Positions 20,966 to 36,754 of a stretch of DNA of 64,000 nucleotides are shown here, one piece after another; within the stretch, counting starts at the first letter, position 1; each line of letters opens with the position of its first letter. Below the pieces are notes generated by a model. The model searched no databases. It was not told the DNA's origin and worked only from the letters and a program-made list of their open reading frames with translations. Origin of the DNA: Gemmatimonadales bacterium (lineage in GTDB: Bacteria > Gemmatimonadota > Gemmatimonadetes > Gemmatimonadales > GWC2-71-9); assembly GCA_035309945.1 (NCBI GenBank), contig DATGEQ010000106.1:143503-207502 (forward strand), given 5' to 3'. The translations under genes and the position numbers were made by a program.

Positions 20966-21010
20966 GGAAAACAGAAGTTCGCTTGCTGCATCGACTTGTT
21001 CAAGTGCGAC

Positions 21011-21033: not shown

Positions 21034-21041
21034 ACTCGTTT

Positions 21042-21150: not shown

Positions 21151-21309
21151 TTATTCCTGCCACGTGTCGCCGACGGCGTTGAGGTTCAACGGGTGGCAAA
21201 CGCCGACCCAGGCCTGCGTCTCGGGATCGCGGAAGACCTCCCAGGCGAGATTGGCTTCAATGCGGACTTGTACAACTCGTGTGGGGAGCAGCTTCGACAG
21301 CAGCGCCAT
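21151..21309 (-). CDS. small HicB/DUF1902-like protein (52 aa)
   Basis: Below the ORF-track cutoff. GAAGGAG SD upstream of ATG 21309. VRIEANLAWEVFRDPETQAWVGVCHPLNLNAVGDTWQE resembles the N-terminal fold of HicB-type antitoxins. Confidence 0.45.
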   Translation of the reverse strand: MALLSKLLPTRVVQVRIEANLAWEVFRDPETQAWVGVCHPLNLNAVGDTWQE

Positions 21310-21404
21310 GCCTCTTCTCCTTCACGGTGAAATACCCCGGGATGGGGCAAACGGCGTGCCTAGTTAGGCGGTTCCTACAATACGGCCGAACGTTAGGCCT
21401 GGCG

Positions 21405-22091
21405 TCAAGGGCGCCGCGCACCCTGGTTACCCGACTTTACGCGCGGAAACTTGCGACGTTGCAGTGTGTTACATCTGGTTTTTCGACGCACGGTGCCTCG
21501 CGCGGCGTCCGGCCCTCGAGTAGGCTCGCGCCCGATCGCGATCACTCCACGATCGTCAACGAGTTCTAGCGCTGGGCCGTGCCGCAGTTTCTGCTGCAGC
21601 ACGCGCTCCCCACCCCTCACGCGCAATACCCTCGCCACCACTAGCCGCGCCGCCTTCTCGCGGACGATTGGCCAGCGCCGTGGTGACACTGCGAGCTGGT
21701 CCGCGGCGTGCTGAACGAGCGCACACATCCATGCTGGCGCGCCGACACGAAGCAGATGGGAGTGACCCCGTTGACGAGCGGCGTGGTAGTGGTCGAGCCA
21801 GGAGAGCACCCGGCTGTAGAGCCAAAAGAGCAGCAATCGATCAGGGATAGAACCGCGCCGGTGACTCGGGACTAGGCGCGACAGCAGGAACTCATTCCAT
21901 ACCGCTGGTCTCACCTTCAATTCTCGCAGAACAGCCGCTCGAGTCCGACCCTTCGGCTGGTCGCGGTCCGAGTAGGCCGACCACACCCCGGGAGATTCGA
22001 ACGGGTCGGCCGTCGGGGCACCAAAACCTGTTGCAGCGAACGCCGCGCAATCTGGGCAGGAGATGGGGTGATCCTTATGTGCAGGGTCCAC
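21405..22091 (-). CDS. hypothetical protein of the element (HPISCPDC Cys motif)
   Basis: 228-aa ORF, divergent from the plus-strand early operon. No domain recognised, and the C-terminal third is Arg-rich and less convincing. Confidence 0.4.
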   Translation of the reverse strand: MDPAHKDHPISCPDCAAFAATGFGAPTADPFESPGVWSAYSDRDQPKGRTRAAVLRELKVRPAVWNEFLLSRLVPSHRRGSIPDRLLLFWLYSRVLSWLDHYHAARQRGHSHLLRVGAPAWMCALVQHAADQLAVSPRRWPIVREKAARLVVARVLRVRGGERVLQQKLRHGPALELVDDRGVIAIGREPTRGPDAARGTVRRKTRCNTLQRRKFPRVKSGNQGARRP

Positions 22092-22110
22092 ACCCTAGAA
22101 TCTACCGCAA

Positions 22111-22329
22111 ATGGAACAGCGCCGCACCAAATCGCTCGACTTCTGGGTGACGCCCGATGAGTTGGAGTGCCTTCGTGCCGGCGCCCGGGCAGCCAGCTCC
22201 TCGCTCAGTGCGTTCGTCCGAGATGCCGCACTCCGCGCGGCCGAGCAGGTCCGTGGCATCGTCAAAGTCGAGCTCGGGCGTGATGAGGCAGAGGCGGTAC
22301 TCAAAGGTCTTTCAACAGAGAGGCGATGA
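22111..22329 (+). CDS. ribbon-helix-helix protein (DUF1778/TacA- or MobC-like)
   Basis: KSLDFWVTPDELECLRAGARAASSSLSAFVRDAALRAAEQV matches the RHH pattern R...I...V.PEE...I..AA...G.S.S.F.R.AAL..AE. Confidence 0.55.
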   Translation: MEQRRTKSLDFWVTPDELECLRAGARAASSSLSAFVRDAALRAAEQVRGIVKVELGRDEAEAVLKGLSTERR

Positions 22330-22330
22330 C

Positions 22331-22660
22331 ATGGAGAACGGCTCGGAGAAACCGACAGTCGAAGAGCTGGCGAAGCTTTTGAAAAAGGCCGCGCGAAAGG
22401 CCGCGCGAAAGGCCGCCAAAAAGATGGTCCGTGAGGAGCTGATGAAGCTTGCGCCGTCGCTCGCGATCGCGAGTGAGCTCGACGACGCAGAGGCTCGCGC
22501 GAAGGCCGGCAAGCCGCTGCGGAAGCGGCAGACGAAGTTGATCGAGAAGATCTACCAGACTGCGAAAGAAAACCCGGGCGAAGGCGAAGCCACGCTGCTC
22601 GAGAAGGTTGCTAAAGGCGCACGCCCCGCCGGCTCATCGGGCTACGCGGACGCGTTGTGA
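22331..22660 (+). CDS. hypothetical Lys/Ala-rich protein
   Basis: In-frame ATG 22331 lies 1 nt after the RHH gene stop. 109 aa and helical (AARKAARKAAKK). Confidence 0.45.
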   Translation: MENGSEKPTVEELAKLLKKAARKAARKAAKKMVREELMKLAPSLAIASELDDAEARAKAGKPLRKRQTKLIEKIYQTAKENPGEGEATLLEKVAKGARPAGSSGYADAL

Positions 22661-23178
22661 TTCCCTCGAGGCCTGGCGCGGAGCTCGAGCGGGGCGTGCT
22701 GATCCACGGAGAAGATTTCTCGTGGACCTGCCCTGGCTACGGCCAAGCGCATGATCTGCCGATCGCGAGCACACAGTGCGCGACGCACTCCCAGTGGCGG
22801 CCGCCGCTCATGTATCGCTGCAAAAAATGCCACCAGCCAGTCGAGCCGGGCGGCCCGCTCGCGGATTACCACTTCGGCTGTTCCAGTCTCAACCGCGGAC
22901 CGGCGCCTGTCGCCGAGACGAAGTACGCGAGACCGGCGCCGCGCGGCGAGGCGGAATACCGGCAAACACTCGCGCACGCCAACGAGCTGCACATCAGTCT
23001 CGGCGCCGAGCTTGAGCGTCTCGCGAGCTGTACGGGAAATGATCCGCACGGCGGCACGCCGTTCGTAAACGAGAAGGGCGAGGTCGTTGGGCGGCAGTCG
23101 CCGGCATTCCGTCGCTCGCTGACGATCATCGCAGCGCTCGAGCAGCTGGCGAAGGCGCTCGGCGGGATGGAGCGCTGA
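22657..23178 (+). CDS. hypothetical protein with CxxC motifs
   Basis: GTGA overlap with the upstream gene. 173 aa containing CKKCH and other Cys pairs. Confidence 0.5.
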   Translation: MIPSRPGAELERGVLIHGEDFSWTCPGYGQAHDLPIASTQCATHSQWRPPLMYRCKKCHQPVEPGGPLADYHFGCSSLNRGPAPVAETKYARPAPRGEAEYRQTLAHANELHISLGAELERLASCTGNDPHGGTPFVNEKGEVVGRQSPAFRRSLTIIAALEQLAKALGGMER

Positions 23179-23513
23179 TGGATCCGCGCTACCGGTGGCC
23201 TGACGGCCGGCCGCTTGCGGGCCCGTTCAACGTGCCCACGCGGCCCGACGTCGAGCCCGATCCGAGGAACAGGGATCCCGAGGTCAATACGCGCCTGCCC
23301 AACTATGACGCCGGCGTCGAGCTGCTCCAGGGATCGAGACCCGACGGCCGCGCGATAGGCAGCGACACGAAAGGTCTGCCCGCGTTCGATCCGAACGGAA
23401 GGACAATCACGCTGGCGGGGCCGAACCTGCCCCAGGCCACGCCGAACGACGTGAGGCTGCCCGATCCGCGCGACGTGCCGGTGGCCACGCCAACTCTGCC
23501 GAGCGAGCCCTAA
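23178..23513 (+). CDS. hypothetical protein
   Basis: The start overlaps the upstream stop by 1 nt (TGATG). 111 aa, proline-rich. Confidence 0.45.
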   Translation: MDPRYRWPDGRPLAGPFNVPTRPDVEPDPRNRDPEVNTRLPNYDAGVELLQGSRPDGRAIGSDTKGLPAFDPNGRTITLAGPNLPQATPNDVRLPDPRDVPVATPTLPSEP

Positions 23514-23525
23514 ACGGAGGCGAGC

Positions 23526-23768
23526 ATGTCGCTACCCGATGCGACGCAGGGCGCTGCTGCAGACGCGAGTCGCGATCGCCGATTGGCGAACGTGGCCGTC
23601 GACATGGACCAGCTGACGCCCGAATTCCTCGCGGCGCGCACGGCCGAGGCGAGCAACTACAACGCCAGCATGGACACGCTCGCCGCGGTGCGCGCGGAAC
23701 AGAAACGGACACACAACGAATCCGTCGGCCGGCCGGCGACAGGGACGGCCGCGCCGCTGAAGAAATGA
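23526..23768 (+). CDS. hypothetical protein
   Basis: 80-aa ORF with GGAGG upstream of ATG 23526. Confidence 0.45.
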   Translation: MSLPDATQGAAADASRDRRLANVAVDMDQLTPEFLAARTAEASNYNASMDTLAAVRAEQKRTHNESVGRPATGTAAPLKK

Positions 23769-23865
23769 CAGCGGGGGAGGTCGTCAGCGCGAGCCTAACC
23801 TCCTCGCCTGGCGGGCAACGGGCCAGGGTTGGCCCGCCTCCTCTGACCCTCAACAGGAAGGGACG

Positions 23866-24105
23866 ATGCCTTATCTCGGGCAGATCGTAATCGTGAACGA
23901 GGACCGCCTGACCGGCACTCAGGAGCGGCGCGCGGCGCCGCGCGGCCGACCGGGGATCATCACGAAGGTCAACGGCGACGGCACCATCAACGCTGTCGTC
24001 TTCAGCGATCGAAACGACGGACACATGGGGCGGTGCACGCAGGTCGTGCAGAACCGCGGCTACTCGCGCACGCCGACCTGGGGCACCTGGCGGGAAGCGG
24101 ACTAA
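23866..24105 (+). CDS. hypothetical protein
   Basis: 79-aa ORF with GGAAGGGA upstream of the ATG. Confidence 0.45.
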   Translation: MPYLGQIVIVNEDRLTGTQERRAAPRGRPGIITKVNGDGTINAVVFSDRNDGHMGRCTQVVQNRGYSRTPTWGTWREAD

Positions 24106-24165
24106 CCAAACGACAACGCCTCGAGCGGCGAACCTCGAGGTTACCGCAACAGGAGACACGATCAA

Positions 24166-24336
24166 ATGCCGCAGCGCGCGAGCCGACGCACACCATCCTC
24201 GGGTCCTCTCCCGGCTCGTGTCTCCGGGCGGGGCGCAAGCGGGTCGGTGGGCCCGGCCCATGCGGATCGGTCGTACTCGGATTGGGAGAGCGTGTACCGA
24301 TCGGAGCGCGGCCGGGGACGGGAGCCGCGGTGGTGA
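24166..24336 (+). CDS. possible small ORF (56 aa, Arg/Ser/Gly-rich)
   Basis: AGGAGA SD upstream of ATG 24166. The stop overlaps the GTG of the next gene (GTGA). Composition is weak for a real protein. Confidence 0.3.
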   Translation: MPQRASRRTPSSGPLPARVSGRGASGSVGPAHADRSYSDWESVYRSERGRGREPRW

Positions 24337-26081
24337 GTGCGTTGAAACCGCGGAAACCGGGCATCTGCGTCGAGCGGTCGGCGACGCTGATTCGGTATCG
24401 CTACGAGAGCGAATCCGCGCCGGGCACCTTCTACGACACCCGGCTCCTCGCCCAGGGTGACCTCTGCGAGTGCTGGGGCTTCCGCAAGTGGCAGAAGTGC
24501 TGGCATCTGGAGGACGCGTGGGCGCAGGAGAGAGCGCGCGGCAACGGCAACGCCGGCACGGCAACGCCGGCGCCGGCCGACGCCATGAGCACCGGTCCTG
24601 GAATGGCCGATCGCGACGTGCCGCCGCCAGAGCCGCCGACCCCTCGAGCATCGACGAGTCCTGTCGTGGGAACGATCCCGCGCAACGTGGTTGAAGACGA
24701 AACCTCCGTCCTGAGTGCGATCCTCACGAGCCATGTCGTGCCGGCTGCGGTCCGCGCGCGGCTGCACCCGAATGTTTTTCAGCGTGAGAGTCACCGGCTG
24801 ATCTACGGCGCAATGCTCGCGCTCGCGGCTCGCGGTGAGCCGATCGACCCGCACACCCTGCGCGCGGCCCTCGACGGCAACCTCGATCGTGCCGGCGGCA
24901 TGGAGTACCTCGCGACGCTGATCGACGTCGTGCCGACGGCCGATCACATCGACGCGCACGTCTCCCTGATCCTCGAGCACCACCGCCGGCGCACGATCAC
25001 CCAGCTCGGCGCCGAGCTCGCCGGCGACAAGCTCTCACCGGCGCAGATGCGCGACGCGATCGCGAAGCTCCAGGAGCTCGCGGTCGACGAGCAGACCCGC
25101 GCGCGGTTCCGGCTCCTGTCTGTCAGTGAGCTGCTCGCGTTGCCCGCGCCGGCCTGGCTGCTCGAGCGCTACCTCCCGATCGGCGGCCTCAGTGTGCTCT
25201 ACGGCGCGCCGGGATCCGGCAAGAGCTTCGTCGCCCTCGCCTGGGCGCTGAGTGTCGCCGCCGGCCAGCCGTGGATCGATTCGCAGACGGTCCAGGGCCG
25301 CGTCATTTACGTCGCGGCTGAGGGCAGCAGCGGACTCGGCAAACGCATCGCGGCGTACACCGATAGCCGCGCGCTCACCCCGGACGGCATCCAGTTCATC
25401 CGTGAACCCGTGAATCTCGGGGAGCCGCGCGACGTCGACGCCCTCGTGGCAGGCGCGGCCGCGGCGCAGCCTGCGCTTGTCGTGATCGATACGCTCTCGC
25501 GATGCATGGAGAGTCTCGACGAGAACAGCCCCGAGGACATGGGACGCGTCATCGCCGGCGTCGATCGCATTCGACGCGCGACCGGTGCGCACGTAGTGCT
25601 CGTCCATCACGCGGGTTGGAGTACGAACGAGCGGCCCCGCGGGCACTCGTCGCTCGTCTGCGCCGCGGATGCCGTGTTCCTCTTGAAGAACGACACCGGC
25701 GTGCTGACGCTCGAGTTCTCAAAACCGCATAAGGACGCGCCACCGATCGAGCCGCTGCAGCTTCGGCTCGTCCCGATCGGAGAGAGCTGCGTCGTCGAGC
25801 CCCAGGACTCGCTCACCGCCATCAGCGAGCTCGAAAAGAGCGATCGCCTGGCGCTCGAAGCCCTGAACGCGATCGCCGTCGGCGACGGTGCCACGAAGAG
25901 CGAATGGCTGTCGGCGGCCACGGAACGGAAGGGGAAAACGTCTCACATGGGGCGTGCGACATTCTACCGTTGTCTCAAGCGGCTGTGCGACAGAAAACTC
26001 GTCGCATGTGAGACAAACGGGAAACAGGCCGAACGCTACTCGCTGACGGGCAAAGGGATTAGCGCGTGCGCCGTCTCATAG
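24333..26081 (+). CDS. replication protein: SWIM zinc finger, DnaB N-terminal-like domain, RepA/AAA_25-type RecA-fold ATPase and C-terminal wHTH
   Basis: CECWGFRKWQKCWH matches CxCxnCxH. A DnaB-N-like block follows (VLSAIL...IYGAMLALAARGEPIDPHTL). Walker A is GAPGSGKS and Walker B is LVVIDTLS. The start could be GTG 24330 or 24333; it is uncertain. Confidence 0.7.
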   Translation: MSALKPRKPGICVERSATLIRYRYESESAPGTFYDTRLLAQGDLCECWGFRKWQKCWHLEDAWAQERARGNGNAGTATPAPADAMSTGPGMADRDVPPPEPPTPRASTSPVVGTIPRNVVEDETSVLSAILTSHVVPAAVRARLHPNVFQRESHRLIYGAMLALAARGEPIDPHTLRAALDGNLDRAGGMEYLATLIDVVPTADHIDAHVSLILEHHRRRTITQLGAELAGDKLSPAQMRDAIAKLQELAVDEQTRARFRLLSVSELLALPAPAWLLERYLPIGGLSVLYGAPGSGKSFVALAWALSVAAGQPWIDSQTVQGRVIYVAAEGSSGLGKRIAAYTDSRALTPDGIQFIREPVNLGEPRDVDALVAGAAAAQPALVVIDTLSRCMESLDENSPEDMGRVIAGVDRIRRATGAHVVLVHHAGWSTNERPRGHSSLVCAADAVFLLKNDTGVLTLEFSKPHKDAPPIEPLQLRLVPIGESCVVEPQDSLTAISELEKSDRLALEALNAIAVGDGATKSEWLSAATERKGKTSHMGRATFYRCLKRLCDRKLVACETNGKQAERYSLTGKGISACAVS

Positions 26082-26166
26082 TCTCACGGCGTCTCACGTC
26101 CGTCTCACGTTGCGGTGAGACTGTCTCACCACCTGGGGGGGCTTATGTATAGCCCCCAGGTGAGAC
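26073..26166 (+). repeat. iteron-like array: 5 direct GTCTCA(C) copies, 2 inverted GTGAGAC copies and an embedded long inverted repeat (candidate origin or Rep-binding region)
   Basis: Direct copies start at 26073, 26081, 26091, 26102 and 26123. Inverted copies lie at 26115-26121 and 26160-26166. The inverted repeat is GTCTCACCACCTGGGGG...CCCCCAGGTGAGAC. Confidence 0.6.
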
Positions 26167-26367
26167 ACGCAGTCCCGGGACAGCTGCCTTTGCAGTCGTC
26201 TGCAAAGCCGCTTGCCCACGCGCCTGCGTCCCCGGTGGGCGCTCGGAAGGTACAGCGGCGCCCGCATATGCCTCACGTTGTTGCCCGCCGTGTTGCCGGG
26301 GTCCGGAAGCGCTGCCGTCGTGCGGCTGATCTGAAGCCAGCAAACACGCGAACCGCTGGAATGAGCC

Positions 26368-26766
26368 GTGGCTGAGCGCACGCTAAGCGCGCTCCGAGCA
26401 TGGGTCGAAGCGGCGCCGCCCGGTACGCTGGTGCCGGCCGCGGCGATCGCCCAGGCGCTGGCTGAGACGGCTGTGCAGACGTCTGCAAACACGCCGGCGC
26501 CGGTGTCCTGGCGCGAGCGGCTGTGGACTTGTCCACCCGAGACGCGGCTCGGTGTCGCCGAGCTGTGCGAAGCGATCGGACGGCCGAAGTCCTGGGTGTA
26601 TCGGCACACCGGCCCGAACAGTCCCGGCGCACGGATCCCGCACCGCCAGCTCGAGGGCGAGCTCGTGTTCGTCGCCGGCGAGCTGCGGCAGTACCTCACC
26701 GAACACGAGACGGTCGTTGTGCCGGGTCGCACGGGCAGTCTCGTCGTTCAGCGGCGGCACGCGTGA
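26368..26766 (+). CDS. excisionase/AlpA-type helix-turn-helix protein
   Basis: LGVAELCEAIGRPKSWVYRHT....IPHRQLEGELVFVAGELRQYL resembles the Xis/AlpA (MerR-like HTH) family. GTG start. Confidence 0.6.
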   Translation: MAERTLSALRAWVEAAPPGTLVPAAAIAQALAETAVQTSANTPAPVSWRERLWTCPPETRLGVAELCEAIGRPKSWVYRHTGPNSPGARIPHRQLEGELVFVAGELRQYLTEHETVVVPGRTGSLVVQRRHA

Positions 26767-27026
26767 ATCACCGCGCCTGCCTCGACAGCTTCACGGGGCT
26801 CGTCGGGTCCATGGATCAGCTCGTCGTCGATCTGAGAGCAAACGGTTGCGCTTCGCTTGCCGATCGCATCATCGGTCTAATGGACCGTCTCGGGAATGCG
26901 CTTCGGGAGAATATGTTGCTGCACAAGCGGGCTGAATCGAGCGATCTTCGCGTCGCCCAGCTGCTCTCCGAGCTTCGGCGGGTTCAGGACGAACTGACCG
27001 GCTTGTTGGAGGGGGACGCGTCGTGA
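26763..27026 (+). CDS. hypothetical coiled-coil protein
   Basis: GTGA overlap with the upstream stop. 87 aa. Confidence 0.45.
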   Translation: MNHRACLDSFTGLVGSMDQLVVDLRANGCASLADRIIGLMDRLGNALRENMLLHKRAESSDLRVAQLLSELRRVQDELTGLLEGDAS

Positions 27027-27265
27027 TCGTCTGCACGGTGTGCGGCGAAGGTCCGAACGATCGCGGCGCCCTGGTCCAGCTCGAGGACGCTACCGGCCTT
27101 CCGTTCTGGGCGCACTACAGCTGCACCGAACCCCAGCGCGCGATCGCCGTCTGCGTGCGCTGTGGTGAGGGCGACTCGATCCGCGTCGGCTGTCTCGTTC
27201 GGATCGGTGCGCGCTGGGCGCATCGCGCGTGTGTCACGTCCGCGCGCACCGCGAAGGCCGCATGA
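27023..27265 (+). CDS. hypothetical Cys-rich (zinc-ribbon-like) protein
   Basis: 80 aa with CTVCGEG and CVRCGEG pairs. The start overlaps the upstream stop. Confidence 0.5.
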   Translation: MIVCTVCGEGPNDRGALVQLEDATGLPFWAHYSCTEPQRAIAVCVRCGEGDSIRVGCLVRIGARWAHRACVTSARTAKAA

Positions 27266-27564
27266 CGCTGTCGACGGTGCAGGCGCGCAAGATGGCGAAG
27301 CGGCTCGGGCAGTTTCGCTCGAAGCTCACGCTCTCCGACATCGAAGAGGCGCTGCCCGAGCTGAACGACCCCGCGGCCGCGAATGCGTGGCTGGAGAAAG
27401 CGTACATCTGGGCCGCCTCGGGAAAGATTCCGGGCACAGTCGCGAATGCGTGCGTCCGCGCCGTTGAGGTCTGGCTCAAGAGTTACGACCTGGCGAAGGT
27501 GACGGCACGGATCCGCGAGCTCGAGCAGCAGCTCGCCGAGGCGAACCGGAGGCGCGATGCCTGA
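27262..27564 (+). CDS. putative terminase small subunit (assigned by position only)
   Basis: ATG 27262 with a GAAGG SD. 100 aa, helical with a C-terminal coiled coil. Lies immediately upstream of TerL and overlaps it. Confidence 0.4.
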   Translation: MTLSTVQARKMAKRLGQFRSKLTLSDIEEALPELNDPAAANAWLEKAYIWAASGKIPGTVANACVRAVEVWLKSYDLAKVTARIRELEQQLAEANRRRDA

Positions 27565-29185
27565 GCGCCACGATCGCCGACTCGACGCGGTGAAGCGCAA
27601 ACTCGACCGCGACCAGCCGCGGCCCGAGCCGCCGGCCGATCGCGAAGGGTTCGAGCAGGATCTGCTCGCGTTCGTGCGTGCCGGGTGGCAGGTGCTCGAG
27701 CCGCGCCGGCCGTTCGTCGTCAACTGGCACCACGAGCTGCTCGCTGAGTATCTGACGGCCGTCAGCCGCCGGCAGATCCTCAAGCTGATCGTGAACGTGC
27801 CACCCCGCTTCACGAAGAGCCGGTTTGCGACGGTGCTGTGGCCGTGCTGGTCCTGGGCGAAGGCGCCGGAACACTCCTGGATCTTTGGCTCGTATGCCGC
27901 CGGCCTGTCGACGCGGCACTCGCTCGACCGGCGCACGGTACTGCAATCCGACTGGTATCAGCAGCGCTGGGGCGAGCGCGTCGCATTCGCGCCCGATCAG
28001 AACGTGAAGCTCTGGTACGAGAATCAAGCGCGCGGCACGATGTACGCGACGTCGACGGGCGGCACGGTGATGGGGTTCGGCGCCGACACGATCGTCGTCG
28101 ATGACCCGCACGATCCTGAGAGCGTGCTGTCGGAGACCGAGCGCGAAACGGCGCTGCGCTGGTTCGATCAGCAGTTGTCGACGCGGCTCAACGATCCGGC
28201 CACGGGCGCGATCGTCGTCATCATGCAGCGCCTGCACCAGGCGGATCTCACTGGCCACCTCCTCGAGGAAGGCGATTGGACGCACGTCGCCTTGCCCGCG
28301 GAATCGGAAGGGCCGACACGCATTGTGTTCCCCGTGTCGGGCCGCGTGGTCGAGCGCGCGGACGGTGCGCTGCTGTGGGCTGAGCGGTTCACGCAGGCGG
28401 TGCTCGACAAGCAGCGGATCCGCCTCGGCAGCTGGGCCTACGCCGGCCAGTTCCAGCAGCGGCCGACGCCATTCGGCGGCGGGATCTTCAAGCGCGACTG
28501 GTTCCGCTTCTACGACGTGACGCCGACGCTCTTCGACAGCTCGGTGGCGTCCTGGGATCTCGCGTTCAAAGAGACCAAGGGCACGGACTACGTCGTCGGC
28601 CAGGTCTGGGGCCGCAAAGGGGCGAACTGCTATTTGCTCGACCAGGTCCGCGGCCGCTGGGACTTTCCGACGACGGTGCAGCGGATCCGCGAGCTCGCCC
28701 GCAAGTGGCCCGGCGTGATGACGAAGCTGGTCGAGGACAAGGCGAACGGGCCGGCCGTGATCGCGACGCTCAAGAACGATATCGGCGGCATGATCGCCGT
28801 GAACCCCGAGGGCGGAAAGATCGTGCGCGCGCAAGCGGTGTCGGCGCTGATCGAGGCCGGCAACGTGCTGTTGCCGCAACCTGCGCTGCAGCCGTGGGTG
28901 AAGGACTTTCTCGACGAGGCGAGTGCGTTTCCCGCCGGCCGCTTCGATGACCAGGTCGACGCGATGACGCAGGCACTGCGCCGGCTCGTCGGCGCGGGCG
29001 ATGCGAAGGCCTGGGCCGCGGCGTTTTGGGGCCTGCGGCCCGAGGATCTGCCCGACAAGCCCCTCGTGCCGCTGCCGGCAGTCGGCGCCGCCGGCGCGTC
29101 GTTCCGCGAGCTGAATCCGGTCGACGGCTCGTTCGGCAAAGCTGGCGCCGCGGTGCCACTCCCGGGAGGGAATAGGCTCACATGA
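27557..29185 (+). CDS. phage terminase large subunit
   Basis: ATPase part: PPRFTKS (Walker A-like) and IVVDDPHDPE (Walker B). The nuclease part ...SWDLAF.....DYVVGQVWG......YLLD..RGRW.F......I..L..KWP.......VEDKANGPAVI......FDDQVDAMTQAL is typical of this TerL family. Confidence 0.85.
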   Translation: MPERHDRRLDAVKRKLDRDQPRPEPPADREGFEQDLLAFVRAGWQVLEPRRPFVVNWHHELLAEYLTAVSRRQILKLIVNVPPRFTKSRFATVLWPCWSWAKAPEHSWIFGSYAAGLSTRHSLDRRTVLQSDWYQQRWGERVAFAPDQNVKLWYENQARGTMYATSTGGTVMGFGADTIVVDDPHDPESVLSETERETALRWFDQQLSTRLNDPATGAIVVIMQRLHQADLTGHLLEEGDWTHVALPAESEGPTRIVFPVSGRVVERADGALLWAERFTQAVLDKQRIRLGSWAYAGQFQQRPTPFGGGIFKRDWFRFYDVTPTLFDSSVASWDLAFKETKGTDYVVGQVWGRKGANCYLLDQVRGRWDFPTTVQRIRELARKWPGVMTKLVEDKANGPAVIATLKNDIGGMIAVNPEGGKIVRAQAVSALIEAGNVLLPQPALQPWVKDFLDEASAFPAGRFDDQVDAMTQALRRLVGAGDAKAWAAAFWGLRPEDLPDKPLVPLPAVGAAGASFRELNPVDGSFGKAGAAVPLPGGNRLT

Positions 29186-29544
29186 GCGACACACCGAAGC
29201 CGAACACCGGCGCGGACTGGGTGGCCTTCACGCGCGGGGAAGCGCTCCACAAACACGGCGTGCGCTTCTCGGATCCCGACGTGGCCTATCCGCCGGCGTG
29301 CCCCGACTGCGGCCGCGCCGAGCGCTGGGTCCGCGTGCACGTCACCGGCGATACGCCGGGCCGCACCGACGTCGTGAACGGGCGACTGGTCGCGGTGCCC
29401 GCGCGGCGATCGAGCGTCACGATGTACTGCTACTTCTGCGCGCGCCAATTCACCTACGGCGGCGAGCTGTTCACCGACCAGGAGCAAGCGGCGCGGACCG
29501 GGAAGCTCTGGCAACAGTCCAAACTTGGAAAGGTGCCACTATGA
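29182..29544 (+). CDS. hypothetical zinc-ribbon protein
   Basis: 120 aa with CPDC...CYFC. ATGA overlap with TerL. Confidence 0.5.
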   Translation: MSDTPKPNTGADWVAFTRGEALHKHGVRFSDPDVAYPPACPDCGRAERWVRVHVTGDTPGRTDVVNGRLVAVPARRSSVTMYCYFCARQFTYGGELFTDQEQAARTGKLWQQSKLGKVPL

Positions 29545-29954
29545 CCACCGCAGTCGAGCAACTCGAAAACGGTGTCCGCGTGCAGTGCACCGACGGTGCG
29601 ATCGTCGTCTGCAAGTCGCTGACCCTCCAAGCTGCCAAGCAGATCATCACGCTCTGGAGAAAACGCTTCGCGCCGCGGCCGCCCGTCAGCGACCCACCGA
29701 CCGACGCCGAGCGGCGGGCGGTGACGGCGTGGGCGATCGGTGTCGCGGATGCGCGAGTCGAAGTGGTCGACGTCTTCGGTACGCTCTATCCCGAGCTCGC
29801 CGCTCATATCTCGCCGGGCGACGTCGAGTCGCTGCTGCCGGATTTTTTCTGGCTCGCGACCGGCGCGGCCGTGCCGGCGACGACGGACCCCCTGACTGGG
29901 ACGCCGCCTACGCCGCCTACTGCGCCGCCTGGGGCGAGCTCCCCGACCCCATGA
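29541..29954 (+). CDS. putative tail assembly chaperone (G-like)
   Basis: 137 aa, immediately upstream of the tape-measure-like gene. Contains the slippery heptamer, and the -1 frame is open through to 30103. Confidence 0.55.
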   Translation: MTTAVEQLENGVRVQCTDGAIVVCKSLTLQAAKQIITLWRKRFAPRPPVSDPPTDAERRAVTAWAIGVADARVEVVDVFGTLYPELAAHISPGDVESLLPDFFWLATGAAVPATTDPLTGTPPTPPTAPPGASSPTP

Positions 29955-30103
29955 TGCCGTATCCGGAGTTCCTGTTGCGTCAACGCGGCGCCGCAATACG
30001 GCAACTCCTCCTTGTCCATGCGGTGCAACTCGCGCAGGCCACCCGGGACGATCTGGGGGCCGTCTCCGCATTCGCGCAGCTGAGGGAGGCTGCCAATGGC
30101 TGA
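29541..30103 (+). CDS. putative -1 frameshift product (GT-like tail assembly chaperone), about 187 aa
   Basis: In the zero frame, T_TTT_TTC at 29843-29849 encodes D-F-F. The -1 frame continues FFLARD... to a stop at 30101-30103, overlapping the start of the tape-measure-like gene (30096). Confidence 0.5.
29843..29849 (+). promoter_or_regulatory. candidate -1 programmed ribosomal frameshift slippery site T_TTT_TTC
   Basis: I checked codon phasing by hand: GAT(29841) TTT TTC TGG in the G frame. Confidence 0.5.
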
Positions 30104-31466
30104 CAACACGGTCGATCTTGCCGTCCGCTGGGCCGAAGCGGGCCAGGACGTTCCCCGGAGGACGGCCGAGAACCTCCAAAACCTCCAGCGCTCCGCAGAG
30201 GGTGCCGGCACGTCGATCGGCGACCGGCTGACGGGAGCCTTTGCCCGCTTCGAAGCGCGCCAGCCGACGATGGTGATTCGTCGGACGGCTCTGGCGCTCG
30301 AGGAGCTCGCGGGGTCCGCGCTCGGCGCCACGGGCCCGGTTGGCCGGATCGCCGAAGCGCTCGTGGGGCTCGGCGGTGCGGAAGGGTTGCTCATCGCGGG
30401 CGGCATTGCCGCGATCGGTCTCGCCTGGCACGAAGTGAGCCAGGAGGCTGACCTCGCCGCCTCGAACGTCGAAGCGGCAGCGAAGCGGATGCACGACGCG
30501 ATCGGCAAAGCGGTCGCGGAGCACCGCGGCGAAGGGCCGGAAGGACGCGCGGACTTCACGCGCGCCATTGCCGAAGCGCAGGCCAAGCTCGCCGCGATCG
30601 AAGCGTCGGCGGTGCCGGCGGCGGTGACGCGCAGCATCTACACGCCCTACGGCTACTCCACGTCCGTGGACACGAGCGCGGCCGAACAGCGGCAGCAGAA
30701 CATCGACAATCTCAAGACGCTGATCGGGCAACTCACCGCCGGCCTCGCGGAGCTGGACAACGAGGCGAATAAGACCGCCGAGCAGGGCCTGCGGCGCGTG
30801 CGCGAGGAGGTGGACAGTCTCGGTGCGAGCATCACGCAGTTCGTGTCGTCGGGACAATTCCAGCTCGCCATCTCGAGCATCGCGATCCCGTCCCTGAAGG
30901 ACATCCTGGGCATCCCCGGCGGGTTCAGTGCGGCGAGCGTGGGCGAGCGCAAGCGCGCGGACATGGACATCCTGGGTCCCATCATCGGCAAGTCGGACAT
31001 CGTCGAAGGCAAAGCCGCCCTCGAGAAGGCGTCGCGCACCGACCCGCGCGAGGGACGGGAGTTCGAACGGCTCGCCGGCGCGCTCGAGCGCGGCATCACC
31101 ATGATGGCGAGCGCGCGGAGCGGCAACGTGGGCGCGGCCGCGCTCGGGGCGTTGGGGGAGACCGCCACGACGGCCAGCGGACTCACCAAGCTGTTCAAGC
31201 TGTCCACCGAGGACACCAAGACCCTCGGGCTCCTCGGGTTTGGGCTCTCGACCGCGTCGAGCCTGCTGTCGATCCTCGGCGGCCATCACCACGAGGTCAA
31301 GATCAATGCCTTCAGCGAGCAGGCGCTACAGCAGATGCGCGAGACGCGCGGCGATCCACTAACGATGGTGCTTGACATCATCGCGGCGATCGGCGCGAGC
31401 CCGCGCACGATGCAGCAGCAGCTCGGCCGCCTGTCGCGCGCGGGCGTCATCACGAGGTTCCCGTGA
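30096..31466 (+). CDS. putative tape measure protein (short, 456 aa)
   Basis: GAGGGAGG SD. Ala/Gly-rich helical protein with hydrophobic segments, placed after a G/GT-like pair. Confidence 0.5.
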   Translation: MADNTVDLAVRWAEAGQDVPRRTAENLQNLQRSAEGAGTSIGDRLTGAFARFEARQPTMVIRRTALALEELAGSALGATGPVGRIAEALVGLGGAEGLLIAGGIAAIGLAWHEVSQEADLAASNVEAAAKRMHDAIGKAVAEHRGEGPEGRADFTRAIAEAQAKLAAIEASAVPAAVTRSIYTPYGYSTSVDTSAAEQRQQNIDNLKTLIGQLTAGLAELDNEANKTAEQGLRRVREEVDSLGASITQFVSSGQFQLAISSIAIPSLKDILGIPGGFSAASVGERKRADMDILGPIIGKSDIVEGKAALEKASRTDPREGREFERLAGALERGITMMASARSGNVGAAALGALGETATTASGLTKLFKLSTEDTKTLGLLGFGLSTASSLLSILGGHHHEVKINAFSEQALQQMRETRGDPLTMVLDIIAAIGASPRTMQQQLGRLSRAGVITRFP

Positions 31467-31771
31467 CCGACTACGCGATCGACCTCCCCGACTGGGAGAC
31501 CTACGCAGCGTTACCCCACGAGGAGCGCAACGCGCTCGTGCAGGCGGAGATCGTGCGCACGGGCAGGGCCCTCAACGTCGACACGTCGGCCTCCGGACGT
31601 GCGCGATTCTTCGCGATGTGGCGCGCGTGGCTGGACGGTGCGGGGGTTCACGCCAAGACCGAGACTGAGCGGGCGGCATTTGAGGTTGCGCAGCAGCTGT
31701 TCAATCTCGCGGAGGCGACGGTGAAGGAGAATTATCCCTTAGGACACGACGAACGGGAGAACCTCGAATGA
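31463..31771 (+). CDS. hypothetical protein (tail module)
   Basis: GTGA overlap with the upstream gene. 102 aa. Confidence 0.45.
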   Translation: MTDYAIDLPDWETYAALPHEERNALVQAEIVRTGRALNVDTSASGRARFFAMWRAWLDGAGVHAKTETERAAFEVAQQLFNLAEATVKENYPLGHDERENLE

Positions 31772-32565
31772 CGCTCTGCATCTCCGTCGCCCTGCCCGAG
31801 CTCGCCCTCGTCGCGTCGACGACGCGCGTGTCGCACACCGGCCCGGGCGGCGAGTGGCTCGGTCCGCGCGAAGATCGCACGGGCGAGTTCGTGAATGTGC
31901 GCCGCGTTGGCGGCGGACCCGCGCGCAGCGGTTGGTGCGCGACGTTCGGCGCGCCGGTGACGTGGTCCGCGCGCGTCTTCGCCGAGCTCGAGCAGGTGAA
32001 CGCCGACGACGTCGACCAGGTCGCGCGGACTGTTGCCGGCGCAACCGAATGGTGCGTCGACCAGGGCCTCGAGCGGCGGATCCCGCCCGAGGAGCAGAAT
32101 CCGGAACGCTGGCCCGGCGGTGTGCAGCTCGTGCATCCGTGGCCCTGGGGCTTCGTGCGCGCGACGGTCTACGGGCAAGGCGAGATCTGGGGCAGGGAAT
32201 ACCCGATCGCGTACTCGCCACCGATCGAGCTGCGCACCGGCGGCCTGCCGCAGAATCTGCGCGACGGATTCGCCGCGGCCGTCGCCGGCAATCGCACGCT
32301 CGCCGCCGTGCTGCGCGCGACGGCGCAGCTGTTCCACACCGTCTATGAGCTCACCGATCGCGAAGCCGGCAGTATCGGTCAGCTCGTCGAAGTCGGGATT
32401 TTGCGCATCGAGATGCTGCCGGGCCAGCGTTGGCAGCTGAACCTCGATTACGTGCGGCCGACCCGGGCCGCCATTCTCGCCGGCGTCGCAGACGCCGAGC
32501 TCGCCGCACTCATCCGGCGCGTCGACCCGCTCCCTCTCGTGGAGGACGCCCATGCTGCTCGTTGA
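31768..32565 (+). CDS. hypothetical protein (tail module, possibly a distal tail component)
   Basis: ATGA overlap with the upstream gene. 265 aa. Confidence 0.45.
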   Translation: MTLCISVALPELALVASTTRVSHTGPGGEWLGPREDRTGEFVNVRRVGGGPARSGWCATFGAPVTWSARVFAELEQVNADDVDQVARTVAGATEWCVDQGLERRIPPEEQNPERWPGGVQLVHPWPWGFVRATVYGQGEIWGREYPIAYSPPIELRTGGLPQNLRDGFAAAVAGNRTLAAVLRATAQLFHTVYELTDREAGSIGQLVEVGILRIEMLPGQRWQLNLDYVRPTRAAILAGVADAELAALIRRVDPLPLVEDAHAAR

Positions 32566-33376
32566 GCCGACACTCGAGGACCTGCTCACACTGTCGACCG
32601 GCTACAATACACAGGTCAGCATGGTGCCGTTCGTGAACGGGCTGAACGGTCTGTTCACCTGGGCGACCGGCGGCCCGAGCTCGGGACAGATGTGGCTCTC
32701 GTTCACCTGGTCCGCAACAACACTCACCCGCGCCGACCAGTCGACGCTCAGCCTCGCGGCACCGCCGAGCGCACTCGCGGCCCCGTCCGTGACGACGTTC
32801 GCCGGTGGGGCGCTCGGCGCGCGGACGCTGTTCGCGCGAATCGCCTACGTGCGGAGCGACGGCGACTATTACTCATTGTACGCGGTGAGCGCCGAGCAGC
32901 CGAACATTGCCGTCGGTGCGAACAACCTCCTGCAAGTGAACAGCCCGGCCGATCCGGGCGGTGGGCAGTACGCCGGCTGGATACCGCTCGTCGGGTCCGC
33001 CGCGAACGGCGAGAAGGTGCAGCTGCAGACGGTCCCGATTCCGTTCGGCACCAACTGGCAAGAGCCGAGCGGCGGCTTCGACACGACGCAGACGCCGTAC
33101 TCGACGAGCTGGAAGTCGCCAGGTGTGACACTGATTCAGATTCCAGCGAACCCGCAGATCGTCTACGCCTACCCGTATCTGCACACGTGGAGCATGGTCG
33201 TGCGCTTTCCAGTCAAAGGCGCGATCACGCCGGGCACGGCGATCGTGCAGAACGGCGACGGGAACGCGGCGTTGACGAGTTTCATCTTACCCTACCTCAA
33301 CTACTCCGCCGGCATCACGATGCCCGCGGCCAACAACACGGGATCCGGCACGGGTGGCGGAGGTCGCTGGACATGA
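32552..33376 (+). CDS. hypothetical protein (possible tail fibre or receptor-binding protein)
   Basis: 274 aa, Ser/Thr/Gly-rich and beta-like, ending in a Gly-rich tail. Assignment rests on position only. Confidence 0.4.
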   Translation: MLLVEPTLEDLLTLSTGYNTQVSMVPFVNGLNGLFTWATGGPSSGQMWLSFTWSATTLTRADQSTLSLAAPPSALAAPSVTTFAGGALGARTLFARIAYVRSDGDYYSLYAVSAEQPNIAVGANNLLQVNSPADPGGGQYAGWIPLVGSAANGEKVQLQTVPIPFGTNWQEPSGGFDTTQTPYSTSWKSPGVTLIQIPANPQIVYAYPYLHTWSMVVRFPVKGAITPGTAIVQNGDGNAALTSFILPYLNYSAGITMPAANNTGSGTGGGGRWT

Positions 33377-33708
33377 TACGACGTCTCTTCGTCGCGCCGC
33401 ACGACGTGCTCGACCAGGTCCGACTCAGTGGGTGCGAAGTGATGGGAATCGACGGCTCGACTGTCCTGCTCGCGGTGACGTCGGCCACGTTAACGGCGGA
33501 CCAGGAGGATGCGTTGCTCGCCGTCGCCGGCGTGCTCGAGCTGCATCCGTGGAACCAGGACAATCCCGCGCCGCCGGCGTTGTCGGCCGCGATCGCGGGG
33601 AGCTCAGTCCCTTCGTTGCAAGCCTTCGCCGCCGCAAACAAACTCGCCGCGCCAACACTGGCCGCGGCGATCAAAGCGGTGGGTCGCAATCTCTCCTGGT
33701 ATCGCTAG
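33373..33708 (+). CDS. hypothetical protein
   Basis: ATGA overlap with the upstream gene. 111 aa. Confidence 0.45.
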   Translation: MIRRLFVAPHDVLDQVRLSGCEVMGIDGSTVLLAVTSATLTADQEDALLAVAGVLELHPWNQDNPAPPALSAAIAGSSVPSLQAFAAANKLAAPTLAAAIKAVGRNLSWYR

Positions 33709-34079
33709 CAGGGGGTCTGCGTCGGAGCGAGGTTCACGTCGGGCGAGCTGCCGGTCGGGATGACGATGGCGTGCCACGCCGGGAACGAGTCGGGATGGAA
33801 CCAGGGCGCGGTATAGACGGCCGTGAGCGGGTTGCCGTTGTTCGGGTTCGTCGCATCGACTTCGAAATACGCGCTGTCCGGCCGCGCGGTGAAGCGCTCG
33901 CAGCGCTCGGTGCGCCCGGGCACCGTGTCGGCGCCGGCGACGCCCTGGCCGTCGCGCCAGGCGAAGTCGACCGGCCAGTCGGTGTTGTTCGTGATGAGCA
34001 CGGACGGATCGTGGTTGGCAGGGCCGGTGCTATTCGAGCACGCGGCGAGCACGGCGAGAAGCGCGAGACTGTAACGCAT
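33705..34079 (-). CDS. lipoprotein on the opposite strand (moron-like)
   Basis: ATG 34079 preceded by AGGAGG. Signal and lipobox MRYSLALLAVLAAC. Confidence 0.65.
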   Translation of the reverse strand: MRYSLALLAVLAACSNSTGPANHDPSVLITNNTDWPVDFAWRDGQGVAGADTVPGRTERCERFTARPDSAYFEVDATNPNNGNPLTAVYTAPWFHPDSFPAWHAIVIPTGSSPDVNLAPTQTPC

Positions 34080-34147
34080 AGGCCCTCCTGGGGCTACGTT
34101 TTCCGCCTTCAATCCTAACCGGAGGGGTACTTGCGGCGCAAGAGGCC

Positions 34148-34166
34148 TGCCCCAATAATTGGGGCA
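34148..34166. promoter_or_regulatory. 19-bp palindrome TGCCCCAAT-A-ATTGGGGCA in a divergent intergenic region (candidate operator)
   Basis: Perfect 9-bp arms, read directly. Lies between the lipoprotein gene (-) and the HTH gene (+). Confidence 0.4.
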
Positions 34167-34190
34167 CGATCTACAACTAGGCTACGCACC

Positions 34191-34403
34191 ATGCTTGCCA
34201 AAGTGCTCTTGTACGCCGCCCCGTCCCTTCGGGAAATCGCCAAGGAAGCGGGCATCACCGAAGCCGCCATGCGTGAGTACGTGAAGGCTCGTCGCACGGC
34301 GCCGCCGGCCGTCATTCGCCGGCTGGTGGCCGTGTTGCGCGCGCGCGGCGGGAAGCTTCGGACGTTGGCGGCGCAGCTCGAGCGCCAGGCTGGCGGGCGG
34401 TGA
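34191..34403 (+). CDS. small helix-turn-helix regulator
   Basis: 70 aa from ATG 34191. SLREIAKEAGITEAAMREYV looks like an HTH. Confidence 0.5.
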   Translation: MLAKVLLYAAPSLREIAKEAGITEAAMREYVKARRTAPPAVIRRLVAVLRARGGKLRTLAAQLERQAGGR

Positions 34404-34428
34404 CGTGGCCTCCCAACGAGGAGGACAG

Positions 34429-34881
34429 ATGGCAACCGCAACCGCAGTTGTTGCACCCAGCGCCGCGACACTCACGGAACAGCTCGCATTCGCTGGTCGA
34501 CTCCTTCGCCGAATCTCGCCGATCTCCACGGCCGTGCGGCTCATTCTGCACGCAGAGACCGAGACGATGCAGGACGTTGAAGTGGCAATGTCGGTTGTCG
34601 CCAGAGAACTGGACAGCCTTGCCGTTGACGTACTTGAGTGGGAGGGCCGGATAAAGGCGGCACGGCCCGGCGTCATTGACGAGGATTACCCCAGCTACAC
34701 GCGGGCCGAGCTCGCCGACGCGCTGCGCGAGATCCGAGAGGTCCTTGCTGAGGGGTCCACGGTGACGGAACCCGGACCGCTCGACGCAAAGCTCGAGGCC
34801 GCACAGCACGTCTTCGAAGTCACGAACTACGTCCCCGAGAAAATCCGGCGGCCGAGCCGCTGCGCGAAGGAGGACGCATGA
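34429..34881 (+). CDS. hypothetical protein
   Basis: ATG 34429 preceded by GGAGGA (the ORF track starts at GTG 34405). About 150 aa with no recognisable domain. Confidence 0.5.
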   Translation: MATATAVVAPSAATLTEQLAFAGRLLRRISPISTAVRLILHAETETMQDVEVAMSVVARELDSLAVDVLEWEGRIKAARPGVIDEDYPSYTRAELADALREIREVLAEGSTVTEPGPLDAKLEAAQHVFEVTNYVPEKIRRPSRCAKEDA

Positions 34882-35126
34882 CCGCCCCCGTCATCACCAA
34901 GAGCCCGGCGGAGGCGTTGTTCGAAGAGCTCTTGTGGCGTGCATGGACCGTCGAAGCCTTGGGGTCCTCTGCGGCGAACGAGGGGGATAGCGGGCTGATG
35001 GTCACACTACTCTGTGGATTTCGGAAAGACTTGAAGAACCTCACTCGACGGGCCGTCGACGTTGGCGTGCTGGACGAGCTGCACGCGCTGACGGTCGAGT
35101 TCGACGACGACGAGGTGACCACATGA
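34878..35126 (+). CDS. hypothetical protein
   Basis: ATGA overlap with the upstream gene. 82 aa. Confidence 0.45.
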   Translation: MTAPVITKSPAEALFEELLWRAWTVEALGSSAANEGDSGLMVTLLCGFRKDLKNLTRRAVDVGVLDELHALTVEFDDDEVTT

Positions 35127-35467
35127 GCGCGCGCGTGAAGCCGCTTACGCCATCTGCTGAGGTGGGATTGTGTATGCGCTACAAGGCGGTGGCTGATGTT
35201 CTGGATTCAGCGATTCATTGCGCCTGGTTCACAGATGACGAGGTGTGGAAGCGGACGGCCGAATCGGCGCGCCACCGAGCCACACACGGCGACTTCTGCT
35301 ACAGCTATGGTCCCTGTGAACCATGGACCTCGGCGCGCGAGCAGGTGCTCCTCGCCAGCGCGCTGGAGAGAAAAGACCGTACCATGCTCGGAAAACAGAT
35401 CCGGCGCCTAGCGGAACGTCTGCGGGAACAGGCGAATGCGATCGCCCGCACTTTGGAGGGCAGATGA
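35123..35467 (+). CDS. hypothetical protein
   Basis: ATGA overlap with the upstream gene. 114 aa. The stop overlaps the integrase ATG. Confidence 0.45.
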   Translation: MSARVKPLTPSAEVGLCMRYKAVADVLDSAIHCAWFTDDEVWKRTAESARHRATHGDFCYSYGPCEPWTSAREQVLLASALERKDRTMLGKQIRRLAERLREQANAIARTLEGR

Positions 35468-36654
35468 GACACCCAGGCCATATCCAACGCCGCGGCGATC
35501 GGCTGCGCGTGTACCTCTGCGTCGGCGGCCGCCGGCACATCTACACGCTGGCCACGACCGATCGCAAAGAGGCGCAGCAATTCGCCAAGACGAAGCAGGC
35601 CGAGCTCGAGCGCCAGGTCGAACGCCGGCGCGACGGCTATCCCGGGCCGCTCCGAGTCTCGGAGCTGTTCGGGGAATTCGAGCGCGACGAGCTCGTCACC
35701 AAGTCACCGGGCACGCAGCGCAGTTACCGGGACAGCCTCAAGCCGATTCGCTACTACTTCGAGCGCGAGGCGCACGACCCGACCGTCGACCGGATCCGCG
35801 CGGGCGACGTCGAGGGGTTCATGACGTGGCGCCGCACGCACAAGGTCCGGACGGTGAAGCAGCCGGACGGCACGGAGACGATCGAGGTCACGCCGGCGCG
35901 GCTGCACGAGCGCACGATCGTGAAGGATCGCGCCGTCCTCCACGCGATCTTCGAGCTCGCCGATCGGCGCGAGTATCGCGACGGCAACCCGGTCGCGCGC
36001 ACGAAGGCCGCGAAATACGACGCGCGCCAGCCGATCATCCTCACCGACGAGCAGTACGCGCAGCTGCTGGAGGCCTGCGACGACGCGACGGTGCGGCTCT
36101 ATGTCCTCCTGCTCGGCGAGACGGGGTGCCGGGACGAGAGCGAGGCGCTGTGGCTACGGTGGGACGACGTCGACCTCGAGGGCGGGTTCCTGCAATTCGT
36201 CTCCGGCCAGAACGGGCACCGGGTCAAGAGCGGCAAGAGTCGGTGGACGCCGCTCACGCCGGCGCTGACGAGCGCGCTGCGCGATCACGCGGCCGCGCAC
36301 CGGCTCGCGTGCAACACGCCCTGGGTGTTCCACCACGATCGCACGGTCCGCCATCATCACGCCGGCGATCGCATCACGTCGCTGCGACGGTCCGTGACGA
36401 AGGCCGCGCAGCTCGCGAAGCTGCCCGCGGGGTGGCACCCGCACGACCTGCGGCATCGGCGCGTGACGGGGTGGCTCGCCGAGGGCGCGAACCCGGTGCA
36501 TGTGAAGGAGGCAGTCGGGCACGCGGATCTGCGGATGACGATGCACTACACGCACCTGGTGCGTGAGCACCTCAAGTCGCTGGTGAATCCTGGCAACATT
36601 TTGGTAACAAACCGCGAAAACGGACGCAATTCCACGCAGTCAGCAGCAGTCTAA
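35464..36654 (+). CDS. tyrosine recombinase / phage integrase
   Basis: Internal ATG 35464. SAM-like N-domain, then a catalytic domain with ...LLGETGCRDESEAL (Arg), HDLRHRRVT (HxxR) and GHADLRMTMHYTH (Tyr). Confidence 0.85.
   Translation: MRHPGHIQRRGDRLRVYLCVGGRRHIYTLATTDRKEAQQFAKTKQAELERQVERRRDGYPGPLRVSELFGEFERDELVTKSPGTQRSYRDSLKPIRYYFEREAHDPTVDRIRAGDVEGFMTWRRTHKVRTVKQPDGTETIEVTPARLHERTIVKDRAVLHAIFELADRREYRDGNPVARTKAAKYDARQPIILTDEQYAQLLEACDDATVRLYVLLLGETGCRDESEALWLRWDDVDLEGGFLQFVSGQNGHRVKSGKSRWTPLTPALTSALRDHAAAHRLACNTPWVFHHDRTVRHHHAGDRITSLRRSVTKAAQLAKLPAGWHPHDLRHRRVTGWLAEGANPVHVKEAVGHADLRMTMHYTHLVREHLKSLVNPGNILVTNRENGRNSTQSAAV
36592..36610 (+). promoter_or_regulatory. candidate integrase arm-type sites (GGCAACATTT t GGTAACAA)
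   Basis: Near-duplicate of 21042-21063. Lies within the 3' end of int, 104 bp from attR. Confidence 0.4.
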
Positions 36655-36714
36655 AACGGGAGATTTGTAGCGGAATCGAGTCGGGTAGAGCAGGGCGCAA
36701 CGGGTCTGGATCAA

Positions 36715-36754
36715 TTAGCAAACCGCCGCCTTCAGCCACTCGGCCACCTCTCCC
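36715..36754. repeat. attR: 40-bp perfect direct repeat (orphan copy of the tRNA-Ser 5' half)
   Basis: Identical to 20926-20965. The sequence to its left cannot complete a tRNA fold. Confidence 0.9.

Follow-up and report, generated by a model that had tools for sequence, protein, structure and literature searches.

Does the 137-amino-acid (aa) open reading frame (ORF) at 29541-29954 give one protein, or do some ribosomes leave its frame near the end and continue in the neighbouring one? The question is raised by a heptamer, T_TTT_TTC, that stands in phase in the 3' part of this ORF, upstream of a putative tape measure gene. The locus lies in a 64,000-nucleotide (nt) stretch of DNA from a Gemmatimonadales bacterium (GenBank assembly GCA_035309945.1, contig DATGEQ010000106.1, positions 143,503 to 207,502 of the forward strand), and this whole stretch is called the window below. 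We compared the locus with its relatives and found that the heptamer and the open −1 frame behind it are conserved, and that the coding signal changes frame at this site. On the comparative evidence, 29541-29954 and its −1 extension to 30103 are most probably a G/GT-type pair made by programmed −1 ribosomal frameshifting. The pair comprises the following features, with the 0-frame product called G and the extension T:

29541-29954, + strand: G-like 0-frame ORF of 137 aa, read from the ORF and its translation.
29843-29849, + strand: slippery heptamer T_TTT_TTC (GAT TTT TTC), an in-phase X_XXY_YYZ site in the 3' part of the upstream ORF.
29849-30103, + strand: −1-frame extension (T part) of 84 codons plus the stop (TGA 30101-30103), read from the translation.
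29894-29947, + strand: conserved −1-frame block DWDAAYAAYCAAWGELPD (DWDxxxxxYxAxWGELPD, 18 residues), within the overlap of G and T, with every usable start lying downstream of it.
29951-29956, + strand: ATG ATG of the −1 frame, which shares bases with the TGA of the 0 frame (ATGA-type overlap); gene callers start a separate ORF of 47-50 aa here.

In the frame of the ATG at 29541, positions 29832-29852 read CTG CTG CCG GAT TTT TTC TGG, and 35 codons separate the slip site from the stop of G. A −1 slip would join 29541-29849 to 29849-30103 in a GT fusion of 187 aa (...LLPDFF/LARDRRGRAG...REAANG, the slash marking the junction). The predicted junction peptide of GT is ...SLLPDFFLAR, with the tryptic peptide VEVVDVFGTLYPELAAHISPGDVESLLPDFFLAR, and the −1 ORF overlaps the next gene (ATG 30096) by 8 nt. 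Our re-reading of the sequence and of both translations agreed with the sequence-only reading, which had placed an in-phase T_TTT_TTC at 29843-29849, followed an open −1 frame to 30103, 8 nt inside the next gene, and predicted products of 137 and about 187 aa. The guanine-plus-cytosine (GC) content per codon position (0.70/0.49/0.82) favours the 0 frame up to the slip site; past the stop of G it favours the −1 frame, and in the overlap the −1 frame fits better than the 0 frame. TTT (15.5% of Phe codons), GAT (33% of Asp codons) and GGT (14.5%) are all minority codons in the window.

A word-indexed search yielded 5 relatives of G, and a full hidden Markov model (HMM) search of 1.84 billion representatives yielded 28 clusters. 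DNA was recovered for a comparison of 14 independent loci, the window included, at 29-78% protein identity; single loci other than the window are given below as L numbers. The results showed that all 14 loci have an in-phase X_XXY_YYZ heptamer at the corresponding position, in four forms:

T_TTT_TTC: the window and 7 other loci, including L003.
T_TTT_TTT: 4 loci.
G_GGT_TTT, one codon upstream: L030, 692-698.
C_CCT_TTT, one codon upstream: L031, 5765-5771.

In L030 and L031 the Phe-Phe pair becomes Phe-Ser and Phe-Tyr, yet an in-phase tandem-slip site remains. The wobble T ahead of Phe-Phe is kept while the residue that it belongs to varies (GAT Asp, GGT Gly, GCT Ala), and synonymous sites elsewhere in the G gene are near saturation (proportion of synonymous differences, pS, 0.61). 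The retained wobble T and the minority codons look like the pattern that selection on the nucleotides of the slip site would leave.

The ratio of nonsynonymous to synonymous differences (pN/pS) was calculated in both frames for three regions, as follows:

Upstream of the slip: 0 frame 0.43, −1 frame 1.12.
Conserved block in the overlap: 0 frame 1.62, −1 frame 0.54.
Downstream of the G stop: 0 frame 1.17, −1 frame 0.60.

Ahead of the slip site the coding signal is in the 0 frame, and behind it in the −1 frame. The −1 peptide can be aligned in 14 of 14 loci, and the Pro/Thr-rich C-terminus of G (TGTxS..T.PP.A.SPT), seemingly conserved in the alignment of 29 G sequences, is the 0-frame reading of the −1 block. 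The sequence-only reading had proposed homologues as its test. In all 14 loci the slippery site is retained and the −1 frame is open, and the reading is not refuted. In L009 (585-1079), the −1 frame lacks its usual stop and runs for 164 codons from the heptamer, deep into the tape-measure gene. Scans with an alignment of five close proteins returned no relatives from IMG/VR or from the GTDB genomes, and a scan of IMG/VR with the DNA pattern returned none either; the DNA-pattern scan of genomes gave 14 chance matches, 0 of them encoding a relative. The 29-sequence alignment is too divergent for pattern-based locus searches.

Gene callers treat the T region differently, as a separate gene of 47-50 aa that starts at ATG 29951 or 29954 and is coupled to the stop of G through the ATGA, so that no frameshift takes place. 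The ATGA overlap is present in the window, callers report an ORF of 44-50 aa in most related loci, and a Met is aligned at the 29951 position in 10 of the 14. However, this Met is replaced by Val in L028, Leu in L031, Val in L032 and Glu in L033, and the −1 ORF of L031 holds no start codon anywhere, with no small gene called there. The conserved DWD...PD block lies upstream of that Met, and of the two frames only the −1 frame shows purifying selection there. No ATG, GTG or TTG precedes the conserved Trp of this block in the −1 frame in 8 of the 14 loci (6 of the 8 closest). A separate gene would also leave the in-phase heptamer of rare codons unexplained in every locus. We regard a separate small gene as very unlikely.

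Frameshifting by the ribosome also has to be weighed against slippage of RNA polymerase, which could add one U within the T-run so that some mRNAs encode GT directly. The slip site is a run of a single base, with six T here and eight in four relatives, and either mechanism would give the same protein. A run of six T is shorter than the runs usually required for efficient transcriptional slippage. The two members with only T5 nevertheless keep a phase-correct heptamer (G_GGT_TTT and C_CCT_TTT), and phase, which matters for re-pairing of tRNAs and is irrelevant to the polymerase, is kept in 14 of 14 loci. Bacteria are known to use slippage of this kind (PMC5009743), but as the source of GT it is distinctly unlikely, most clearly so at the two T5 sites and less firmly at those with T6 or T8.

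A coincidental heptamer and open −1 frame, or a homopolymer assembly error, with the region past the G stop non-coding or wrongly phased, is highly improbable. Open −1 frames and even an in-phase T_TTT_TTC do arise by chance in a GC-rich window, but the same frame relationship recurs in 14 independent assemblies from different samples with four heptamers, and the downstream −1 frame has a clear coding signature.

Apart from the hint given by the GC content per codon position, the window by itself gives no such answer. Its proteins are identical to those of a Gemmatimonadales metagenome-assembled genome. Its GC content is 66%, and when the open-frame statistic was taken over all codons of its 32 confident genes, at least 84 open −1 codons followed 54% of them. 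The window holds exactly three T-runs of at least six (at 3283, 29843 and 48225), as the sequence-only reading had counted, and one A-run. The T8 run at 48225 yields a second in-phase T_TTT_TTC at 48227-48233, about codon 81 of a TolC/OEP efflux gene (47985-49283) within an AcrB-OEP-HlyD operon, and a long open −1 frame follows it too. We judged this second site to be a chance occurrence, and it serves as a negative control. The sequence-only reading had argued from the window alone that chance placement was unlikely; this argument fails, given the 54% of open −1 frames and the second heptamer in the efflux gene. We therefore set aside T-run rarity and the open −1 frame as evidence, since such window-only statistics are uninformative in a GC-rich window; the site is more than chance because the heptamer and the −1 frame are conserved in homologues. 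The third T-run, at 3283-3289, is a T7, GGAATTTTTTTGGGAG.

An AlphaFold2 model of G, built on the 29-sequence alignment, reached a mean predicted local distance difference test (pLDDT) score of 89.6 and a predicted template modelling score (pTM) of 0.71. The modelled protein has a short helix, two strands and three helices followed by a coil tail. The folded domain spans residues 1 to about 105, and residues 106-137 form the Pro/Thr-rich tail, which is the 0-frame reading of the overlap. The last modelled helix covers residues 92-103, and the slip codons, 102-103, are at its end, so that G and GT share one complete domain. In the model, the frameshift thus falls at a domain boundary: G would be the domain with a disordered tail, and GT the same domain with the T part.

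Under programmed −1 frameshifting, most ribosomes would stay in the 0 frame and make the 137-aa protein, a domain of about 105 residues with its disordered Pro/Thr-rich tail. A minority would slip at T_TTT_TTC with a peptidyl-tRNA-Phe on UUU in the P site and an aminoacyl-tRNA-Phe on UUC in the A site. Both tRNA-Phe would re-pair one base back, on UUU UUU, where pairing is still cognate, the property that makes such motifs efficient in bacteria, and reading would resume at CUG (29849). The slip product would be the 187-aa protein, in which the shared folded domain is joined to an 84-residue T domain. U_UU.U_UU.C is among the more efficient bacterial −1 heptamers in E. coli and is used by insertion sequence (IS) elements, and U_UU.[U,C] is among the most shift-prone tetramers (PMC4066793). 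In phage lambda, G and GT are made at a ratio of about 30:1, G coats the tape measure protein and T recruits the tube protein (PMC5009743). By analogy with lambda, the shared G domain would coat the tape measure protein encoded at 30096-31466, and the T domain would recruit a tail-tube subunit. The analysis shows the site with its phase and conservation, the change of coding frame, the missing independent start and the domain boundary; that ribosomes slip here, that they do so rarely and that the products act as chaperones is what we infer. The conserved G/GT frameshift of dsDNA phages with long tails (Levin 1993; Xu, Hendrix & Duda 2004, 2013, 2014) is summarised in PMC5009743.

The gene that follows the pair bears on this assignment:

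30096-31466, + strand: putative tape measure protein of 456 aa, assigned from its position and its homologous ends.

The sequence-only reading had taken the frameshift as support for a tape measure at this position. A homologue of 30096-31466 lies directly downstream of G/T in seven related loci, and the 456-aa protein can be aligned only at its ends, about residues 1-118 and 400-456, with homologues of 389-508 aa. Conserved ends around a middle of variable length fit a tape measure. Support from a known family did not follow: the sole match is Tape_meas_lam_C (E = 5e-4, 20.5 bits), below the 23-bit cut-off. Compared with its counterpart in L001 (2692-4194), the protein is 95% identical over its last 59 residues and only 49% over the first 108, and the middle cannot be aligned. 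This mosaic identity suggests recent recombination within the tape-measure gene.

Two long related contigs, L003 (28.4 kb) and L031 (24.9 kb), are clearly tailed-phage structural modules. Both have head-tail connector genes upstream of G/T, gp6-like and HK97 gp10-like ones in L003, and Phage_HCP and head-tail adaptor ones in L031. Directly adjoining G/T, L031 has a 319-aa gene (4520-5479) that matches phrog_290 (annotated as a minor tail protein), and L003 has a 323-aa gene (4680-5651) upstream with one inserted gene between it and G. Past the pair, L003 continues with a 508-aa homologue of the putative tape measure, a 280-aa gene, a 451-aa tail protein (phrog_5939) and a 1511-aa protein; after its own tape-measure homologue, L031 has collinear genes that, compared by size, are similar (280, 430 and 1457 aa). 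The proposal that programmed −1 frameshifting yields G-like and GT-like products is supported by this tail synteny together with the 14 of 14 heptamers, the frame switch and the absence of an independent start.

The inserted gene of L003 (5654-6925) encodes 423 aa with weak TPR and glycosyltransferase-9 matches, and is flanked by the 323-aa putative tube gene and by G. L031 lacks this gene, which has the look of an inserted moron. HNH endonuclease genes (HNH_3, weak NUMOD3), at L001 578-1009 and 5046-5480 and at L002 802-1233, are inserted around the tail genes of the closest related phage contig.

We also assessed the RNA downstream of the slip site for a stimulatory structure:

29854-29883, + strand: possible hairpin with a 7-base-pair (bp) stem, CCGGCGC (29860-29866) with GUGCCGG (29871-29877), and the loop GGCC, starting 10 nt after the heptamer.

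The sequence-only reading had described a CCGGC/GCCGG stem about 10 nt downstream as weak, a description that holds for the 7-bp stem that we found. The stem is present in the 6 close loci and broken in two divergent ones, L009 and L010. The 30 nt that follow the slip site are nearly invariant in the six close loci, and the 8 closest share the core GACCGGCGC without change. Read in the 0 frame this core gives the conserved residues TGA, and read in the −1 frame the conserved residues DRR, and double coding would explain the invariance of the 30 nt at least as well as a hairpin.

Several results weigh against a G/GT pair at this locus. Folding of the hairpin is no more stable than that of shuffled sequence (z = −0.28), its stem has no covariation support (the RNAalifold covariation term is positive), and an Rfam search of the region gave no match. 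Neither G nor GT matches a chaperone family in Pfam, PHROGs or NCBIfam; when 29 members of the G family were scanned against Pfam, one matched Phage_TAC_6, at E = 0.05. Searches of the PDB by sequence profile and by fold gave nothing usable. For two independent models, the best named fold match in BFVD was a 'Tail assembly chaperone' (A0A6J5QVP5, probability 0.91 and 0.97), and it is suggestive but not significant (E 0.06 and 0.026, template modelling score 0.36-0.49 overall and 0.36-0.44 for the search with E 0.026). The 456-aa protein has no match in PHROGs or NCBIfam. The distance of 35 codons from slip to stop exceeds that of lambda. The upstream neighbours of the pair in the window are a large terminase gene and a 120-aa orphan, no tail-tube gene is recognisable in the island, and the pair may be without its partner there. 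The comparative set is also small, with 14 phylogenetically related loci of one family. The labels 'tail assembly chaperone' and 'tape measure' are accordingly ones that we draw from synteny and from the frameshift itself.

The probable frameshift pair is carried by an integrated island, whose other features are the following:

20926-36754, no strand: integrated island of 15,789 bp, with 40-nt perfect direct repeats at 20926-20965 and 36715-36754.
20874-20964, − strand: tRNA-Ser (GCT), with the left repeat inside it.
24033-26081: DnaB/AAA_25 helicase.
27557-29185: large terminase.
29182-29544: 120-aa ORF that contains two CxxC pairs and is joined by an ATGA overlap to the terminase on one side and to G on the other.
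32552-33376: stand-alone 274-aa ORF with 37% identity to L003 14723-15490, which encodes about residues 1115-1370, in the C-terminal part, of the 1511-aa tail protein there.
35323-36654: integrase, ending 60 nt before the right repeat.

The island also encodes a helix-turn-helix (HTH) protein. The terminase, the 120-aa orphan, G/GT, the 456-aa protein and genes of 102, 265 and 274 aa form a tightly overlapping operon. The 120-aa ORF found no homologue besides itself in 5.8 billion proteins. The 274-aa ORF may be a receptor-binding or fibre domain, judging from its similarity to the L003 protein. The 265-aa gene was considered as the counterpart of the 280-aa gene found behind the tape measure of L003, and the two are unrelated. 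HMMs recognised no portal, capsid, protease or tail-tube gene in the island. In IMG/VR, the terminase has relatives with portal-sized genes downstream and no other gene in common with the island, and a second example of its architecture was found neither among these relatives nor by the search with the 120-aa gene. Just past the 3' end of the tRNA-Ser, at 20818-20859, are two tandem 21-nt units (TGATCAATGATCATTGGTCAT, 90% identical), each palindromic.

The island is either a prophage deletion remnant or mosaic, or a satellite-like element. Features of satellites such as phage-inducible chromosomal islands (PICI), capsid-forming PICI (cfPICI) and P4-like elements are present, namely attachment (att) repeats, an integrase, a helicase and a partial set of virion genes; on the other side stand an architecture seen once and terminase relatives that adjoin portal-sized genes. 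We consider it improbable that the island is a streamlined satellite whose terminase, chaperone pair, short tape measure and receptor-binding-like fragment serve to hijack helper heads and tail tubes. Undamaged att repeats and ORFs, and the ATGA-type overlaps that link the genes, would be compatible with such a satellite; our literature search on satellites that carry tape measures found nothing relevant. If the island were a satellite, the element could dictate tail length or host range, and the frameshift would work in a parasite of a phage. The frameshift site in the island is intact and identical to the site of seven related loci, one of which is L003 with its complete tail module.

Public records call these proteins 'hypothetical protein' and callers add a spurious ORF of 47-50 aa; the pair can now be annotated. 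It defines a small chaperone-like family (28 clusters) outside the Pfam, PHROGs and NCBIfam models; all members known to date come from metagenomes of soil and other environments or from a single Gemmatimonadales metagenome-assembled genome (MAG). The pair also anchors a tail module in phage contigs that otherwise resist annotation, and it adds a high-GC lineage to the evidence for a near-universal G/GT frameshift in long-tailed phages. The slip site is kept here despite strong codon bias, with another heptamer substituted in some members.

Among known signals, those of dnaX and of IS3/IS911-family transposases usually have a Shine-Dalgarno-like element upstream and a hairpin or pseudoknot downstream, whereas no stimulator is supported here. 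The tandem-slip heptamer is common to both, and U_UU.U_UU.C is found in IS elements (PMC4066793). The tail assembly chaperones of Pfam Phage_TAC_1 to Phage_TAC_n, and those so named in SEA-PHAGES actinophages, resemble G in size (about 110-160 aa), in position and in having a frameshifted partner, but the present proteins match none of these models and form a separate small family of 28 clusters. The lambda gpG/gpGT pair differs in that neither sequence similarity nor a significant similarity of fold to the present one is detectable, and its heptamer is G_GGA_AAG in place of T_TTT_TTC. Here the slip lies 35 codons before the stop of G, so that G has a long Pro/Thr-rich tail, and the T part is short (84 aa). 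The lambda genes follow the tail-tube region, a position plausibly shared by the related phages; the window does not share it, as the element there has no recognisable tail-tube gene. In both systems, overlapping frames lie directly upstream of the tape-measure gene, an in-phase X_XXY_YYZ heptamer of the −1 type is present, the short and the long product share an N-terminal domain, and the −1 ORF lacks an independent start and stops where the tape-measure gene begins. The pair is thus very probably a case of a known mechanism, like that of lambda G/GT, in a previously unnamed protein family, and it leaves that mechanism unchanged.

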